A stretch of DNA of 5,823 nt from a virus (Duplodnaviria; Heunggongvirae; Uroviricota; Caudoviricetes): IMG/VR virus record IMGVR_UViG_2695420372_000014; one strand, given 5' to 3'. Every line of letters starts with the position of its first letter. Positions within the stretch are counted from its first letter, which is position 1. The notes beneath the pieces are model-generated. The model was not told the origin of the DNA. It was given only the letters and a program-made list of their open reading frames with translations, and did no database searches. Both the position numbers and the translations under genes were made by a program. Below are positions 1 to 5,823 of the stretch, piece by piece.

Positions 1-41
1 TTTTTTATTGTTGTCAGCTTCCGGATAACGGGAGACGGGGT

Positions 42-257
42 ATGTACCAGATGGAAAAAATCACAACAGGTGTGTCATACACCACGTCAGCGGTGGGAAC
101 GGGCTACTGGTTCCTGCAGTTGCTGGACAGGGTTTCCCCGTCTCAGTGGGCGGCAATAGGCGTGCTGGGGAGTCTGCTGTTTGGGCTGCTGACATATCTG
201 ACTAACCTGTATTTCAAAATCAGAGAGGACCGTCGTAAGGCTGCACGGGGAGAGTAA
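42..257 (+). CDS. S: Class II pinholin, phage-21 S-type (71 aa) with dual-start motif
   Basis: The ORF begins [10 protein letters not shown], with Met1 and Met4 separated by a charged residue, as in the phage-21 S antiholin/holin dual start. Two hydrophobic segments ([19 protein letters not shown] and [22 protein letters not shown]) are followed by a charged C-terminal tail [13 protein letters not shown], which matches the S21 pinholin as I recall it. A G-rich Shine-Dalgarno-like stretch (gggagacgggg) lies upstream. It is paired with a SAR endolysin downstream, which is the expected partner. Confidence 0.85.
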
Positions 258-261
258 TTCA

Positions 262-1068
262 ATGACTCAAAACTATGAACTGATTGTGAAAGGGATCCGC
301 AATTTTGAGAATAAAGTTACGGTAACTTTAGCGTTACGGGACAAAAAACGCTTTGACGGTGAAATTTTTGACCTGGACATCTCGCTGGACCGTGTTGAAG
401 GTGCCGCGCTGGAGGTTTATGAGGCAGCAGCCAGAAGGAGCATCAGACAGGTCTTCCTGGATGTTGCTGCCGGGTTATGTGAAGGGGATGAGCTGTCGCC
501 GGAAAAGCGCCCCATAATTTTAGAGGCGCAGGATGTGTTGATAACCTACAAAGGAAAGCTACCGGGAAGAATTACTGGTTCTCTGAAGATGCCGCCGTCA
601 ACACTGCGGTCAGAAAAAGAGGCGTCTTGTCTGCAGTCTGAGTACTCCATTACGGTTAAAAGTGCCGGAGAGGAAGGAAATAAACGTTATTTTATTGCGT
701 CTGCACCTGATAAAGATCAGGAATGGGAGTGTAACCGGCCATCCTTTGTTGTATACGGAGATGGCGGGAAAATAACCATCTCAGAAAATGGGAAATTAAC
801 ACCGCCATCGCACCAGCATAGTGAGGCGCTCATTGAATTTGCCATTGATTACCTGAAGAACAATAAAAAGCAGGGGCTGATGAAGCGCATTGGTCGTTGC
901 ATGGGATATCTGCAGGTAGCAGCTGAGATTGAAATGATGGCCAGTGGTGCTGACAATGATGCAGTTGTGCTGGAGGCTCTTCTGCGTGATTTTGATAATA
1001 CGCCCTTTAAGAAAGCACCTGTTGACTGGATGCAGCCGGGGATGACTTATCTGAAAGGGCGTATATAA
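262..1068 (+). CDS. Hypothetical protein (268 aa), unknown function, inserted between holin and endolysin
   Basis: A long uninterrupted ORF whose ATG lies 4 nt after the holin stop, with a ggagag Shine-Dalgarno-like motif inside the holin 3' end, so it is likely translationally coupled to the late lysis operon. It has no obvious transmembrane segment or signal peptide. Spot counts of 60-nt stretches give about 37-42% G+C, against about 60% in the flanking holin and terminase. I recognise no catalytic motif or known family. Confidence 0.6.
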   Translation: MTQNYELIVKGIRNFENKVTVTLALRDKKRFDGEIFDLDISLDRVEGAALEVYEAAARRSIRQVFLDVAAGLCEGDELSPEKRPIILEAQDVLITYKGKLPGRITGSLKMPPSTLRSEKEASCLQSEYSITVKSAGEEGNKRYFIASAPDKDQEWECNRPSFVVYGDGGKITISENGKLTPPSHQHSEALIEFAIDYLKNNKKQGLMKRIGRCMGYLQVAAEIEMMASGADNDAVVLEALLRDFDNTPFKKAPVDWMQPGMTYLKGRI

Positions 1069-1077
1069 GGTGGCTCG

Positions 1078-1392
1078 TTATCTGTTGCTGGATAATCGAC
1101 TGAAGATGCGTTCTTTTTGTGTTTTTGCGTAATGATTGTCCCACTCACAATCAAGGTAGCTTAATTCTTCATTCAACCAGTTATTTATATTGGTCTTAAT
1201 ACGCATAAGCATGGGCTGTGTTAATGCTCTGGCGATAATGCCGAGAGTCACAGGTGTGAGATGTCCATACGGCTCAGCCTGAATGGATTTTACTGCATCG
1301 TGTTCTTGTGGGAGGAGTAAGAGGCACTCTGATTTTACCCGCTCATTTATGGCTTGCAGGCATAAATCATAATTATGTTGATCGTTATGCAT
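1078..1392 (-). CDS. Hypothetical protein (104 aa), unknown function, convergent with the 268-aa ORF
   Basis: Minus-strand ORF with an ATG start preceded by a gagga Shine-Dalgarno motif about 6 nt upstream (minus-strand reading ...agtagaggattaacc-ATG). The plus strand has no competing ORF here. A 60-nt spot count gives about 32% G+C. Its stop is only 9 bp from the stop of the 268-aa ORF. The composition is protein-like and soluble, with no family recognised. Confidence 0.45.
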   Translation of the reverse strand: MHNDQHNYDLCLQAINERVKSECLLLLPQEHDAVKSIQAEPYGHLTPVTLGIIARALTQPMLMRIKTNINNWLNEELSYLDCEWDNHYAKTQKERIFSRLSSNR

Positions 1393-1520
1393 GGTTAATC
1401 CTCTACTGAAATTGTCAGATATATTTCAGCCATCAGGAAAAACGCCAGTGTCCTACCGCTGGCGGGCTGAAGATTTAACATATCCAGGGATTCGGAACCG
1501 ATAAATCCTGATAAATATCC

Positions 1521-2054
1521 ATGAACACCAAAATCAAATATGGCCTGTCGGCTGCCGTTCTGGCGTTGATTGCCATCGGTGCGCCTGCGCCTGATATTCT
1601 CGACCAGTTTCTGGATGAAAAAGAAGGTAACCACACAACGGCATACCGTGATGGTGCGGGTATCTGGACCATCTGCCGCGGTGCCACAATGGTGGATGGT
1701 AAACCTGTTATTCCGGGCATGAAACTGTCGAAGGAAAAATGCGACCAGGTTAATGCCATTGAACGGGATAAGGCGCTGGCATGGGTGGAGCGCAATATTA
1801 AAGTTCCACTGACCGAACCACAGAAAGCGGGTATAGCGTCATTCTGTCCCTATAACATTGGCCCCGGTAAGTGTTTCCCGTCGACGTTTTATAAGCGGCT
1901 GAATGCTGGTGACCGCAGGGGAGCGTGTGAGGCGATTCGCTGGTGGATTAAGGACGGTGGCAGAGACTGCCGTATTCGTTCAAACAACTGCTACGGTCAG
2001 GTATCCCGTCGTGACCAGGAGAGCGCGCTGGCGTGCTGGGGTATCGACAGATAA
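1521..2054 (+). CDS. R: SAR endolysin (T4-lysozyme-like muramidase, glycoside hydrolase family 24 type)
   Basis: The N-terminus has a Gly/Ala-rich weakly hydrophobic segment (YGLSAAVLALIAIGAPAP) typical of a signal-anchor-release domain. It is followed by EGNHTTAYRDGAGIWT, which fits the E-x8-D-x5-T catalytic triad of T4-lysozyme-type muramidases and resembles phage 21 R / P1 Lyz as recalled. Confidence 0.85.
   Translation: MNTKIKYGLSAAVLALIAIGAPAPDILDQFLDEKEGNHTTAYRDGAGIWTICRGATMVDGKPVIPGMKLSKEKCDQVNAIERDKALAWVERNIKVPLTEPQKAGIASFCPYNIGPGKCFPSTFYKRLNAGDRRGACEAIRWWIKDGGRDCRIRSNNCYGQVSRRDQESALACWGIDR
1939..1946 (+). other. Chi octamer 5'-GCTGGTGG-3' (site 1 of 3)
   Basis: Exact match to the E. 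coli Chi octamer on the plus strand, inside the endolysin gene. Confidence 0.8.
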
Positions 2055-2143
2055 GCAGAATATTTTGCTGAAAAATAAGGCATGGCCACGCGGGCGGATA
2101 ACATGAAATCCTGCGAACTGGCGAAACGTAAGTGAATAAAAGT

Positions 2144-2186
2144 AAAAACCCCGTTTGTTGGCACCAAGCGGGGTTTTGTGTTTCCT
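2144..2186. terminator. Hairpin flanked by A-run and T-run (bidirectional rho-independent terminator-like)
   Basis: The sequence is aaaaaccccgtttg-ttggcac-caagcggggtttt followed by gtgtttcc. The 13-nt arms are complementary apart from one G-U wobble, with a 7-nt loop, a U-rich tract downstream and an A-tract upstream. It lies in the roughly 300-bp gap between the endolysin stop and the Rz start. Confidence 0.45.
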
Positions 2187-2213
2187 GACTCCGGAAAAGT
2201 CAAAGGAGAAAGT

Positions 2214-2351
2214 GTGTTTGATTTTAGCAAACTGATTCGGGAGATTCGAGTGATGGCTGAAAAATTATCCACCTGGAAGTTCATTCTTATCTGGCTGGTG
2301 TTTGTGATTATGGCCTCCGGTTATTTCATCGGTCAGATACGCTGGTGGTGA
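2214..2351 (+). CDS. Small hydrophobic ORF (45 aa from GTG 2214, or 32 aa from ATG 2253) with one predicted transmembrane helix
   Basis: Translation is (M)FDFSKLIREIRVMAEKLSTWKFILIWLVFVIMASGYFIGQIRWW. An aggag Shine-Dalgarno motif at 2204..2208 lies 5 nt before GTG 2214. The TGA stop (2349..2351) is 1 nt before the Rz ATG, suggesting coupling. It is below the size cutoff of the supplied ORF track and was found by reading the sequence. Confidence 0.3.
   Translation: MFDFSKLIREIRVMAEKLSTWKFILIWLVFVIMASGYFIGQIRWW
2341..2348 (+). other. Chi octamer 5'-GCTGGTGG-3' (site 2 of 3)
   Basis: Exact match on the plus strand, immediately upstream of the Rz start codon. Confidence 0.8.
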
Positions 2352-2352
2352 A

Positions 2353-2820
2353 ATGAACCGCGTACTGTGCGTGGTCATCATTGCCCTGCTGGTGGCCTGT
2401 GGTGCGCTTAGTCTGGGGCTGAATCATTACCGTGATAACGCCATAACCTACAAAGAGCAGCGCGATAAAAAAGTCAGTGAGCTGGAGCAGGCAAATGCAA
2501 CCATTACTGATATGCAGCAGCGCCAGCGTGATGTTGCTGCACTTGATGCCAGATACTCGAGGGAATTAGCCGATGCGAGAGCTGAAAATGAAACTCTGCG
2601 CGCTGACGTTGCCGCTGGTCGTAAGCGCCTGCGGATCAACGCCACCTGCCCCGGTACCGTGCGTGAAGCCCCCACCACCTCCGGCGTGGATAATGCAACC
2701 GGCCCCCGACTGGCAGACACCGCTGAACGGGATTATTTCACTCTCAGAGAGCGGTTGATGCTGATGCAGAAGCAGCTGGAAGTGGCGCAGGAATATATCC
2801 GCACTCAGTGCCTGAAATAA
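2353..2820 (+). CDS. Rz: Spanin inner-membrane subunit Rz (i-spanin), 155 aa
   Basis: N-terminal transmembrane segment, then NHYRDNAITYK, DMQQRQRDVAALDA, RLADTAERDYFTLRERL and MQKQLE, closely matching lambda Rz as recalled. The Rz1 frame is embedded. Confidence 0.9.
   Translation: MNRVLCVVIIALLVACGALSLGLNHYRDNAITYKEQRDKKVSELEQANATITDMQQRQRDVAALDARYSRELADARAENETLRADVAAGRKRLRINATCPGTVREAPTTSGVDNATGPRLADTAERDYFTLRERLMLMQKQLEVAQEYIRTQCLK
2388..2395 (+). other. Chi octamer 5'-GCTGGTGG-3' (site 3 of 3)
   Basis: Exact match on the plus strand within the Rz N-terminal coding region. Confidence 0.8.
2573..2758 (+). CDS. Rz1: Spanin outer-membrane lipoprotein subunit Rz1 (o-spanin), embedded in the +1 frame of Rz
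   Basis: Translation MRELKMKLCALTLPLVVSACGSTPPAPVPCVKPPPPPAWIMQPAPDWQTPLNGIIS has a lipobox (VVSAC), a proline-rich region and CVKPPPPPAWIMQP...DWQTPLNGIIS nearly identical to lambda Rz1 as recalled. The true start may be the internal Met at 2588. Confidence 0.85.
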   Translation: MRELKMKLCALTLPLVVSACGSTPPAPVPCVKPPPPPAWIMQPAPDWQTPLNGIISLSESG

Positions 2821-3017
2821 GTTTTGCTGATGCGCGGTATTGTCGCCGTATCCCCGCATTAACAGAGACCGCAGCCCGACCGGGAGACTCCTCTGCGCGA
2901 GTGTGCGGGGATAATCAAAAACGATACACACCGGGGTTTACCGCGTTAACGGAGCGCGGCGTTGTCCCCTCATAGTCGCCTGTCCGGTGCGATGGTGGAA
3001 GAAACCGGACTACATTG

Positions 3018-3040
3018 AAAATGATAACCATTATCATTTT
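3018..3040. repeat. Perfect 10-bp inverted repeat (aaaatgataa / ttatcatttt) with 3-nt spacer, about 33 bp upstream of cosN
   Basis: Read directly from the sequence. The position corresponds to where lambda carries cosQ, but the sequence is not one I can match to lambda cosQ from memory. Confidence 0.5.
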
Positions 3041-3072
3041 GCGGGTCCTTTCCGGCGATCCGGGCCGTTACG

Positions 3073-3084
3073 GGGCGGCGACCT
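3073..3084. other. cosN: cosN cohesive-end sequence (12-nt GGGCGGCGACCT)
   Basis: The sequence cgttacg-gggcggcgacct-cgcgggttttcgctatttatgaaaattttccgg matches the lambda right-end/left-end junction as recalled, placed immediately upstream of Nu1 as in lambda. Confidence 0.75.
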
Positions 3085-3123
3085 CGCGGGTTTTCGCTAT
3101 TTATGAAAATTTTCCGGGGAAAA

Positions 3124-3233
3124 TCATGTCGGTACTTCTCGAACATAACTATTTGTTTTTTCTAATATCGAATCCGTAAAAGGTCCGACATGAAAACGCC
3201 TAAAAAAGTCATTTTCGGGCACTTTCATGTCGG
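3124..3233. promoter_or_regulatory. cosB: cosB-like region with three copies of a TCATGTCGG motif (direct 3124..3132, inverted 3185..3193, direct 3225..3233) around an AT-rich tract
   Basis: Three 9-bp repeats sit in a direct-inverted-direct arrangement between cosN and the Nu1 start, which fits the R3-I1-R2-R1 architecture of lambdoid cosB. The motif differs from the lambda R sequence as I recall it, consistent with the diverged Nu1 N-terminal domain. Confidence 0.55.
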
Positions 3234-3260
3234 CCCCTGTATTTATTGTGAGACTGTTTC

Positions 3261-3806
3261 ATGAAGGTTAATAAAAAGAAACTTGCCGAAATTTTCAACG
3301 TGGATCCGCGAACGATTGAACGCTGGCAGTCTCAGGGACTCCCTTGTGTCTCCGGAGGTGGTAAGGGCGTTGAATCTGTATTTGATACCGCCATGGCAAT
3401 TCAGTGGTATGCGCAGAGGGAAGCTGATATCGAAAATGAAAAACTCCGTAAAGAGGTTGAGGATTACAGGGCTGCCAGTGAGGCAGATCTCCAGCCTGGG
3501 ACTATTGAGTACGAACGCCATCGACTTACGCGTGCGCAGGCCGACGCACAGGAGCTGAAGAATGCCAGAGACTCCGCAGAGGTGGTGGAAACCGCATTCT
3601 GTACTTTCGTGCTGTCACGGATCGCAGGTGAAATTGCCAGTATTCTTGACGGGATCCCTCTCTCGGTACAGCGGCGTTTTCCGGAACTGGAAAACCGACA
3701 TGTTGATTTCCTGAAACGGGATATCATCAAAGCCATGAACAAAGCAGCCGCGCTGGATGAACTGATACCGGGGTTGCTGAGTGAATATATCGAACAGTCA
3801 GATTGA
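3261..3806 (+). CDS. nu1: Terminase small subunit Nu1 (gp1), 181 aa
   Basis: The C-terminal two thirds ([58 protein letters not shown]...[43 protein letters not shown]) are essentially identical to lambda gpNu1 as recalled. The N-terminal DNA-binding domain ([28 protein letters not shown]) is related but diverged. The 3' end overlaps the A start, as in lambda. Confidence 0.92.
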
Positions 3807-4842
3807 TATTCTGCGGCGTGATGTACGCGCCGGGCTGCGAGCCCTGTTCAGGCCGGAGCCACAGACTGCCGTTGAATGGGCGGATGCCAGTTACTATCTC
3901 CCGAAAGAATCCGCATACCAGGAAGGGCGCTGGGAAACACTGCCCTTTCAGCGGGCCATCATGAATGCGATGGGCAGCGACTACATCCGTGAGGTGAATG
4001 TGGTGAAGTCTGCCCGTGTCGGTTATTCCAAAATGCTGCTGGGTGTTTATGCCTACTTCATAGAGCATAAGCAGCGCAACACCCTTATCTGGTTGCCGAC
4101 GGATGGTGATGCCGAGAACTTTATGAAAACCCACGTTGAGCCGACTATTCGTGATATTCCGTCGCTGCTGGCGCTGGCCCCGTGGTATGGCAAAAAGCAC
4201 CGGGATAACACGCTCACCATGAAGCGTTTCACCAATGGGCGTGGCTTCTGGTGCCTGGGCGGTAAAGCGGCAAAAAACTACCGTGAAAAGTCAGTGGATG
4301 TGGCGGGTTATGATGAACTTGCTGCCTTTGATGAGGATATTGAACAGGAAGGCTCTCCAACGTTCCTGGGCGATAAGCGTATTGAAGGCTCGGTCTGGCC
4401 AAAGTCCATCCGTGGCTCCACGCCCAAAGTGAGAGGCACCTGTCAGATTGAGCGTGCAGCCAGTGAATCCCCGCATTTTATGCGTTTTCATGTTGCCTGC
4501 CCGCACTGCGGGGAGGAGCAGTACCTTAAATTTGGCGATAAAGAGACGCCGTTTGGCCTCAAATGGACGCCGGATGATCCCTCCAGCGTGTTTTATCTCT
4601 GCGAACATAATGCCTGCGTCATCCGCCAGCAGGAGCTGGACTTCACTGATGCCCGTTATATCTGCGAAAAGACCGGGATCTGGACCCGTGATGGCATTCT
4701 CTGGTTTTCGTCATCCGGTGAAGAGATTGAACCGCCTGACAGCGTGACCTTTCACATCTGGACGGCGATTACTATCTCCCGAAAGAATCCGCATACCAGG
4801 AAGGGCGCTGGGAAACACTGCCCTTTCAGCGGGCCATCATGA
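3781..4842 (+). pseudogene. A: Terminase large subunit A, N-terminal fragment: 329 native codons then a 24-codon out-of-frame tail caused by the internal tandem duplication
   Basis: GTG start overlapping the Nu1 3' end. The product matches lambda gpA (MNISNSQ...RPEPQTAVEWADA...HFMRFHVACPHCGEEQYLKFGDKETPFGLKWTPDD...SVTFHIWTA) up to nucleotide 4767. The reading frame then re-enters the duplicated segment out of frame (period 878, which is 2 mod 3), giving ITISRKNPHTRKGAGKHCPFSGPS and a stop at 4840..4842. Confidence 0.85.
3891..4767 (+). repeat. Tandem direct duplication, copy 1 (877 bp, internal to gene A)
   Basis: Base-by-base comparison with 4769..5645 at offset 878. The copies are identical except for 9 substitutions clustered at copy-1 positions 4059..4239. 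A single unmatched a at 4768 marks the junction. Confidence 0.95.
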
Positions 4843-5645
4843 ATGCGATGGGCAGCGACTACATCCGTGAGGTGAATGTGGTGAAGTCTGCCCGTGTCGG
4901 TTATTCCAAAATGCTGCTGGGTGTTTATGCCTACTTTATAGAGCATAAGCAGCGCAACACCCTTATCTGGTTGCCGACGGATGGTGATGCCGAGAACTTT
5001 ATGAAAACCCACGTTGAGCCGACCATCCGCGATATTCCGTCGCTGCTGGCGCTGGCTCCGTGGTATGGCAAAAAGCACCGGGATAACACGCTCACTATGA
5101 AGCGTTTTTCCAATGGTCGTGGCTTCTGGTGCCTGGGCGGTAAAGCGGCAAAAAACTACCGTGAAAAGTCAGTGGATGTGGCGGGTTATGATGAACTTGC
5201 TGCCTTTGATGAGGATATTGAACAGGAAGGCTCTCCAACGTTCCTGGGCGATAAGCGTATTGAAGGCTCGGTCTGGCCAAAGTCCATCCGTGGCTCCACG
5301 CCCAAAGTGAGAGGCACCTGTCAGATTGAGCGTGCAGCCAGTGAATCCCCGCATTTTATGCGTTTTCATGTTGCCTGCCCGCACTGCGGGGAGGAGCAGT
5401 ACCTTAAATTTGGCGATAAAGAGACGCCGTTTGGCCTCAAATGGACGCCGGATGATCCCTCCAGCGTGTTTTATCTCTGCGAACATAATGCCTGCGTCAT
5501 CCGCCAGCAGGAGCTGGACTTCACTGATGCCCGTTATATCTGCGAAAAGACCGGGATCTGGACCCGTGATGGCATTCTCTGGTTTTCGTCATCCGGTGAA
5601 GAGATTGAACCGCCTGACAGCGTGACCTTTCACATCTGGACGGCG
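4769..5645 (+). repeat. Tandem direct duplication, copy 2 (877 bp), contiguous with the native 3' part of gene A
   Basis: Same comparison as copy 1. The supplied ORF track shows identical alternative-frame ORF translations at +878 (4291..4608 equals 5169..5486; 4448..4747 equals 5326..5625). Confidence 0.95.
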
Positions 5646-5823
5646 TACAGCCCGTTCACCACCTGGGTGCAGATTGTCAAAGACTGGATGAAGACGAAAG
5701 GGGATACGGGAAAACGTAAAACCTTCGTGAACACCACGCTCGGTGAGACGTGGGAGGCGAAAATTGGCGAACGTCCGGATGCTGAAGTGATGGCAGAGCG
5801 GAAAGAGCATTATTCAGCGCCCG
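4839..5823 (+). CDS. A: Terminase large subunit A, 5'-truncated reading frame from the internal Met (native codon 61) through copy 2 into the native downstream sequence; partial at window end
   Basis: The frame is open from 4740 to the window end. The first ATG (4839) overlaps the stop of the upstream fragment (ATGA). Translation continues ...HIWTAYSPFTTWVQIVKDWMKTKGDTGKRKTFVNTTLGETWEAKIGERPDAEVMAERKEHYSAP, matching lambda gpA as recalled. Whether it is translated is unknown. Confidence 0.5.
   Translation, partial: MNAMGSDYIREVNVVKSARVGYSKMLLGVYAYFIEHKQRNTLIWLPTDGDAENFMKTHVEPTIRDIPSLLALAPWYGKKHRDNTLTMKRFSNGRGFWCLGGKAAKNYREKSVDVAGYDELAAFDEDIEQEGSPTFLGDKRIEGSVWPKSIRGSTPKVRGTCQIERAASESPHFMRFHVACPHCGEEQYLKFGDKETPFGLKWTPDDPSSVFYLCEHNACVIRQQELDFTDARYICEKTGIWTRDGILWFSSSGEEIEPPDSVTFHIWTAYSPFTTWVQIVKDWMKTKGDTGKRKTFVNTTLGETWEAKIGERPDAEVMAERKEHYSAP

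Follow-up and report, generated by a model that had tools for sequence, protein, structure and literature searches.

Does the tandem repeat inside the terminase large-subunit gene A of this prophage reflect a structure that the prophage carries, or did it arise when the sequence was put together? The window, by which we mean the whole stretch of 5,823 nucleotides analysed here (from IMG/VR record IMGVR_UViG_2695420372_000014), is by its Pfam gene assignments the late-gene/packaging junction of a lambdoid prophage, and the order cos-Nu1-A is the same in all the related loci that we fetched. Its left end lies inside a poly-T run of variable length and is uninformative on whether it represents a contig end at a mosaic boundary. 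The features that precede gene A are as follows:

42-257: P21-type holin (Pfam)
262-1068: DUF1327 protein, 268 aa (Pfam)
1521-2054: lysozyme (Pfam)
2353-2820: Rz (Pfam), with an Rz1 ORF embedded at 2573-2758
3073-3084, + strand: cosN core GGGCGGCGACCT, an exact match to the lambda cohesive-end 12-mer; terminase cutting site
3111-3132, 3177-3206 and 3212-3241: cosB repeats, 3' of cosN and up to the Nu1 start
3261-3806, + strand: terminase small subunit Nu1, 181 aa, intact (PF07471, E = 6.9e-91)

An earlier note, made from the letters of this DNA, had identified the interrupted gene as terminase A, and the profile searches agree: Nu1 matches PF07471, with an identical protein listed in 5058 blocks of a public collection, and the A frame that opens at 3781 matches PF05876 (GpA_ATPase; E = 2.5e-51 over residues 47-285 of the truncated ORF). 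The start of A overlaps the end of Nu1 and lies 3' of cosN and cosB, which is the lambda-type gpA layout and is also found in the relatives, whose intact 641-aa A has its start called at the same GTG. The roles of gpA are cos cleavage, ATP-driven packaging and portal binding (PMC2366019). Among solved structures, we found no sequence match to gpA residues 1-329. In the window, A is split between two frames:

3781-4842, + strand: truncated terminase large-subunit ORF, with a GTG start, 329 native gpA codons, 24 out-of-frame codons and TGA
4839-5823, + strand: rest of A in the copy-2 frame, open to the window end

An uninterrupted frame of ~641 codons, the 641-aa length seen in the relatives, is absent from the A gene of the window, which extends past the window end. 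The frame arithmetic of the earlier note holds in full: the native codons, 329 in number, end at 4767, the frame breaks at 4768 and the TGA stop occupies 4840-4842. The copy-2 frame is open to the window end. Native codon 61 provides its earliest ATG, and this shares bases with the TGA that closes the truncated ORF (ATGA, 4839-4842). This second frame matches PF05876 again (E = 4e-46) and then the start of the GpA_nuclease profile PF20454 (E = 3.9e-16; only 69 of the 294 profile positions fall inside the window).

The repeat itself is easily seen. Compared with itself at an offset of 878, the sequence matches at 925 of 1065 positions, far beyond chance when other offsets between 870 and 889 give about 235-287, and a separate repeat search returned the same spacing, so the coordinates first proposed for the repeat (3891-4767 and 4769-5645) are confirmed. 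Tandem Repeats Finder reported nothing, but the longest period that it considers is 500, and its silence is therefore no evidence against the repeat. While period and position were borne out, the copies are not identical: 868 of 877 positions agree, and nine differences that the earlier note did not mention are found at 4059, 4146, 4149, 4152, 4179, 4218, 4230, 4231 and 4239. Eight of these nine internal sites are third codon positions, and all of them are confined to 181 of the 877 bases (4059-4239), an arrangement with a probability of ~2.5e-5 for sites placed at random. For reasons given below we prefer a repeat unit that begins one base earlier (3890-4767 against 4768-5645), which gives copies of 878 bases with 10 differences and no filler base between them; all 10 then fall in the first 350 of 878 bases (random-site probability ~1e-4). 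Being both clustered and mostly at third codon positions, the differences read as imported natural polymorphisms, and on their pattern neither decay nor sequencing error would account for them.

The origin of each copy could be traced by comparison with natural alleles of A. Using the 268-aa DUF1327 protein, we reached a set of relatives with exactly the same gene order, and positions 1-4767 of the window are 100% identical, ungapped, to five independent draft assemblies among them (L013, L014, L015, L019 and L022) and 99.98% identical to a further one (L018). In every one of these loci A is present as a single copy and intact (641 codons). We refer to their allele as X. Window positions 4769-5823 align to the same X loci 878 bases further back, with mismatches at the nine tract sites only. 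Judged by this identity, copy 1 is the resident allele X, and the three parts of the gene may be listed as follows:

3890-4767, + strand: repeat copy 1, assigned by identity to resident allele X; codes for gpA residues 37-329 and lies within the 4767-base X-identical stretch
4768-5645, + strand: repeat copy 2, 878 bases; period 878, with 10 differences from copy 1
5646-5823, + strand: single-copy A continuation, identical to allele X

Copy 2 opens with a different allele. Many complete E. coli genomes match the stretch 4768-5140, junction base included, at 100%, and identity to it reaches 99% or more in 1579 records. We inspected three carriers of this allele (Y): all are prophages whose DNA-packaging genes are of nohA type or similar; two have a Qin-like cspI-ynfO-nohA context and one is a K-12-like Qin remnant. 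We compared the window with allele Y site by site, using L023, L024 and L025, with the following result for copy 2:

4768-5117, + strand: foreign allele Y tract, with Qin/nohA-type A bases at 10 of 10 diagnostic sites
5118-5236, + strand: interval in which X and Y are identical and within which copy 2 switches, in register, from Y to X

Phage lambda was set aside as a donor of the tract: the Qin/nohA-type alleles match it at 100%, and lambda presumably carries the copy-1 bases there.

The first of the ten diagnostic sites is the base at 4768, which the earlier note had taken for one extra base at the junction. It is an A, where the resident base at 3890 is G, and A is also the base of L005, L006, L008, L012, L023, L024 and L025 at the 3890-equivalent, so that the codon there is AAT (Asn) in the other natural A alleles and AGT (Ser) in X. 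We have therefore rejected a filler base in favour of a templated base of allele Y. Nor does this comparison support the headline of a direct tandem self-duplication as stated, as the opening 350 bases of copy 2 match a widespread foreign allele at 100%. Because copy 2 carries another allele from the junction base on, the allele comparison excludes a plain self-duplication as a sufficient explanation.

To the right of the tract, nothing separates X from Y over 4240-4292 or, with other variants of Y, over 4240-4358. Beyond this interval L023-L025 differ from X at 4293 and/or 4359, 4368, 4374 and 4377, and at no fewer than 10 further sites up to 4764 (15 or more overall), and at each Y/X site right of the switch copy 2 agrees with X. 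Copy 2 thus changes allele once, with three Y blocks followed by at least eight X blocks, and the window as a whole is made up of X (1-4767), joined to Y (3890-4239), which passes into X (4240-4945). The exact Y-to-X haplotype of copy 2 is absent from complete E. coli genomes, among which the closest allele is that of L012 (99.2%, 7 mismatches in 877), and a 166-mer of this haplotype has no exact match in IMG/VR, JGI or the GTDB representatives.

A self-duplication could be kept if the event were split in two, with a duplication of 3891-4767 and an untemplated base followed by gene conversion of 4937-5117 from a co-resident Qin-type prophage. The nine-site tract is flanked by 168 identical bases on one side and at least 53-119 on the other, enough to anchor a conversion. 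However, two rare events would be needed, yet nothing else has changed over 4.7 kb. Duplication junctions in E. coli seldom contain untemplated bases, which counts against this account, and the filler would have to equal the Y base by chance (~1 in 4) beside a polymorphic site (about 3-4%). Moreover, the first base of copy 2 is out of the reach of conversion because there is no homology to its left. Although there is good evidence that lambdoid phages exchange DNA with cryptic prophages (De Paepe et al., 2014, PMC3945230), we consider this sequence of events improbable.

What remains is a direct join of X, ending at 4767, to a second allele that starts at 3890/3891, whether the joining was biological or computational. 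The join can be placed to the base:

4767-4768, + strand: sole novel junction, where X (…GGACGGCG) abuts the other-allele 3890-equivalent (ATTACTATC…)

The 31-mer across it reads …CATCTGGACGGCGATTACTATCTCCCG…. The two sides meet 878 bases out of register and without microhomology, the sequence is clean and the junction sharp, with no N and no indels, and the only candidate for a gap is the single base 4768, which is equally readable as allele-Y sequence. Foreign sequence sets in with the junction base itself. Copy 2 starts at the left end of the stretch 3891-4058 that both alleles share, just past a site at which X and Y differ (about 3-4% of positions would give a start just after a polymorphism in this way), and copy 1 ends 30 bases past the X/Y site at 4737 of L024/L025-type (K-12-type) alleles.

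The junction was sought widely. At most the right half of a 70-mer across it aligns in 5,426 complete E. coli genomes, 50,697 phage records and 72,556 plasmids, and a junction 27-mer is absent from the GTDB species representatives, IMG/VR and JGI metagenomes. An exact look-up of the truncated 353-aa product found it not to be on record, and a search of the frameshift tail peptide against 5.8 billion protein clusters matched only in-frame gpA fragments. One apparent full-length match to the tail, P0009, was rejected as an alternative-frame ORF of the native A 5' end (3803-3964).

On balance we think that the repeat is probably a false 'heterotype' duplication introduced by assembly, scaffolding or finishing, and not a structure of the prophage. 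According to this proposal, the source strain would hold the lambdoid prophage X and a second lambdoid or cryptic prophage, whose A gene would have the common Qin/nohA-type sequence to ~4239 and be identical to X from 4240. One assembled piece would follow prophage X, enter the portion of A common to both alleles and stop at 4767; another would start at the shared stretch at 3890/3891, follow the variable tract of the second allele and continue in shared sequence. In the assembly step that we infer, these overlapping pieces would have been laid end to end and not merged, leaving two 99%-identical tandem copies, a homology-free junction and a spurious frameshift. The earlier note had raised, as its alternative, an artefact of near-identical prophage terminase genes; the two-allele make-up favours that suggestion.

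Several observations point to such an artefact. Each copy has sequence characteristic of a different allele, and genome assemblies are known to err by setting two alleles next to each other as if they were paralogues (Ko et al., 2022, PMC9516828). The X loci are 100% identical to the window over positions 1-4767 while having A single-copy and intact, so any real event would have to be extremely recent. A start of copy 2 at an X/Y site is what would be expected of a branch in an assembly graph and not of a random biological breakpoint. The other end of the join also fits a branch end at k = 31 (4737 + 30 = 4767), a correspondence that was noticed post hoc, depends on the Y variant and carries little weight. 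Contig concatenation gives joins without microhomology, which replication slippage and template switching usually do not, and in vivo such similar genes recombine in register. The junction, the truncated product and the frameshift tail were found nowhere else in the collections searched, and a short-read assembly of the same prophage breaks inside A (contig L020 ends in the gene).

Other features fit an assembly artefact less well. Modern de Bruijn-graph and long-read assemblers rarely emit junctions that are absent from the reads, so that a novel join needs chimeric reads or post-assembly concatenation or gap closing, and no N run separates the two copies. The single allele switch in copy 2 resembles a true haplotype and not a random walk through graph bubbles, yet the Y-to-X haplotype that the postulated second allele should have is absent from complete E. 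coli genomes, IMG/VR, JGI and the GTDB representatives.

The main rival is a real event, namely a single illegitimate join, in one cell, of resident X (4767) to another A allele (3890) from a Qin/nohA-type or mosaic prophage or a co-replicating phage. This could have given a hybrid prophage, or the junction could be the point at which a larger duplication or deletion of the chromosome between two prophages was joined. A clean, sharp junction with neither N nor indels is consistent with this, as is a foreign tract that starts from the exact junction base, which end-to-end joining of two molecules predicts. Natural mosaic alleles near copy 2 exist (L012, with its 7 mismatches in 877), and in-silico removal of one repeat unit opens the A frame again, giving either pure X or X with T151S. 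A tandem repeat of 878 bp with 528 identical bases is, however, expected to be unstable given the rates of duplication loss, which counts against a single join. Prophages commonly have A as a pseudogene, as shown by L005, with its frameshift at codon 469, and by the truncated Qin remnant of K-12 type. Exchange between lambdoid phages and defective prophages is known from the nu1/A/cos region, and a recombinant whose A is disrupted can still be packaged, with other copies supplying the terminase (PMC3945230). Against this, genes as similar as these recombine, in the overwhelming majority of cases, by homology and in register; in a lambda assay, events without homology stayed below detection (<5e-9), compared with 1e-6 to 1e-4 with homology (PMC3945230). 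Two different elements would have to break inside one and the same 2-kb gene, at points offset by 878 bases and sharing no microhomology, which would be a large coincidence, and the break would also have to coincide with an X/Y polymorphic site (about 3-4% chance). Elsewhere the prophage has no substitutions at all relative to its relatives, and the junction occurs in no other record searched. A real join of this kind is in our estimation unlikely, though by no means far-fetched.

If the structure were real, it might also be asked whether it does anything. The stop of the first ORF overlaps an ATG (ATGA), the downstream frame matches the ATPase domain and the start of the nuclease domain, and deletion of one unit restores the gene in silico, all of which would be compatible with a reversible packaging off-switch or with a split terminase made of gpA(1-329) and a re-initiated gpA(61-641). 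However, the ATGA is ordinary native A sequence in another frame and is present in every allele, and there is no conservation, as neither the junction nor the tail peptide appears elsewhere in the collections searched. A re-initiated gpA would, moreover, lack the N-terminal Nu1-binding residues known from lambda terminase genetics, which counts against a functional arrangement. We find such a role hardly conceivable. A bolder version, in which a real structure would act as a recombination-resolvable lock on the prophage, with RecA or Red recombination between the 528-bp or 168-bp blocks restoring a working A at high frequency and cryptic-prophage DNA both silencing and diversifying the packaging gene, is to our mind very improbable.

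The locus can be set beside several known systems. As in false heterotype duplications (Ko et al., 2022, PMC9516828), the adjacent copies are two natural alleles, the nearest relatives are single-copy, a join lies between the duplicates and the change to the gene comes as a by-product. The published cases concern the haplotypes of diploid vertebrates and usually have a gap, whereas here the proposed sources are A paralogues from two prophages of one haploid genome, and the join has at most one base and no N; read depth and k-mer multiplicity are the defining diagnostics in that work. The recombinants of De Paepe et al. (2014, PMC3945230) involve the same cos-nu1-A region, with Dlp12, Qin and Rac as defective-prophage partners, so that the types of partner are alike (an active lambdoid element and a Qin/nohA-type element), and the in-register Y-to-X switch within copy 2 resembles homologous exchange of this type. 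Those recombinants are, however, in register and without duplication, while the left junction in the window is 878 bases out of register and without homology.

If real, the window would also resemble the cryptic-prophage terminase pseudogenes (nohA-A of the K-12 Qin prophage, and L005), in which an inactive A stands beside intact Nu1 and cos. The known ones are deletions, truncations and small frameshifts, whereas the window has an internal heteroallelic repeat of 878 bases. Tandem duplications of phage lambda, reportedly described by Emmons, Bellett, Busse and Baldwin in the 1970s, are said to have been selected for genome length and to have spared essential genes. The window is like them in having a head-to-tail repeat with one novel joint that would be unstable through recombination between the copies, but those duplications consist of identical self-copies, while the copies here are heteroallelic and break the essential gene A.

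Should the join prove real, gpA would be cut after residue 329, the sole downstream in-frame start would be the ATG at codon 61, and the prophage would be left without a functional terminase because A is frameshifted. The genome could still be packaged by a terminase supplied in trans (PMC3945230). The earlier expectation of a packaging-defective prophage unless the repeat is resolved by recombination would then be sound: a crossover in the 528-bp identical block would restore pure X, and one in the 168-bp block would put the Y tract into X, with T151S as the single change, in frame in both cases, in line with the reopened frame after unit deletion in silico. Since natural A pseudogenes are common, a real event would be just one more way to kill a prophage gene. 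It would rank among the few documented joins of an active lambdoid prophage to a Qin-type element made out of register and without homology, and would bear modestly on prophage decay and mosaicism without amounting to a novel type of system.

Read literally, the sequence would be annotated as a terminase pseudogene and its prophage scored as defective, although the nearest relatives have an intact A. The site-by-site comparison of the copies with the alleles of the population offers a cheap, read-free way to separate a self-duplication from a two-allele join. More generally, the locus is a caution that the near-identical terminase genes of co-resident lambdoid prophages are a place where assemblies go wrong.

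Upstream of the terminase genes, the window carries several further features:
262-1068, + strand, DUF1327 (YdfR-family) gene, 3' of the holin gene
1078-1392, - strand, 104-aa ORF, flanked by the DUF1327 and lysozyme genes
2573-2758, + strand, 61-aa ORF embedded in another frame of Rz (2353-2820)
3073-3084, cosN, GGGCGGCGACCT
3111-3132, cos-region element, direct
3177-3206, cos-region element, inverted
3212-3233, cos-region element, direct

The DUF1327 gene encodes 268 aa in the window, whereas the product has 114 aa in most related prophages. Because the Pfam match is limited to residues 1-100, the protein has a C-terminal extension of about 170 aa that is assigned to no family. This long form recurs in the public collection, where 164 blocks list a protein identical to it. 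The neighboring 104-aa ORF on the opposite strand gave no match in a Pfam search, and it is an annotated gene in all related assemblies.

The 61-aa ORF within Rz is proline-rich, has a lipoprotein-like start and is called as Rz1 (PF06085) in the related draft assemblies L013 and L019; it represents the known embedded Rz/Rz1 spanin arrangement. Further downstream, cosN is followed on its 3' side by the three related elements, each 22-30 nt long, in the region up to 3241, a layout that probably resembles lambda cosB with its Nu1-binding sites R3, R2 and R1.

Natural pseudogenes or remnants of A were found in three other E. coli records. In CP029327.1 (prophage locus L005, 10521-12460), A is a pseudogene with a frameshift at codon 469; in NZ_CP032992.1 (prophage locus L025, 2892-4697), a K-12-like Qin remnant, A ends prematurely beside tfaQ; and in NZ_CP116925.1, near 3293431, A is annotated in several pieces.

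Several prophages carrying the same Nu1 (L003, L004, L005 and L012) also contain a satellite-like element with integrase, AlpA and D5-primase genes. It is inserted inside the head-gene block (portal, or decoration/major-capsid genes) or downstream of it, and interrupts the structural genes.
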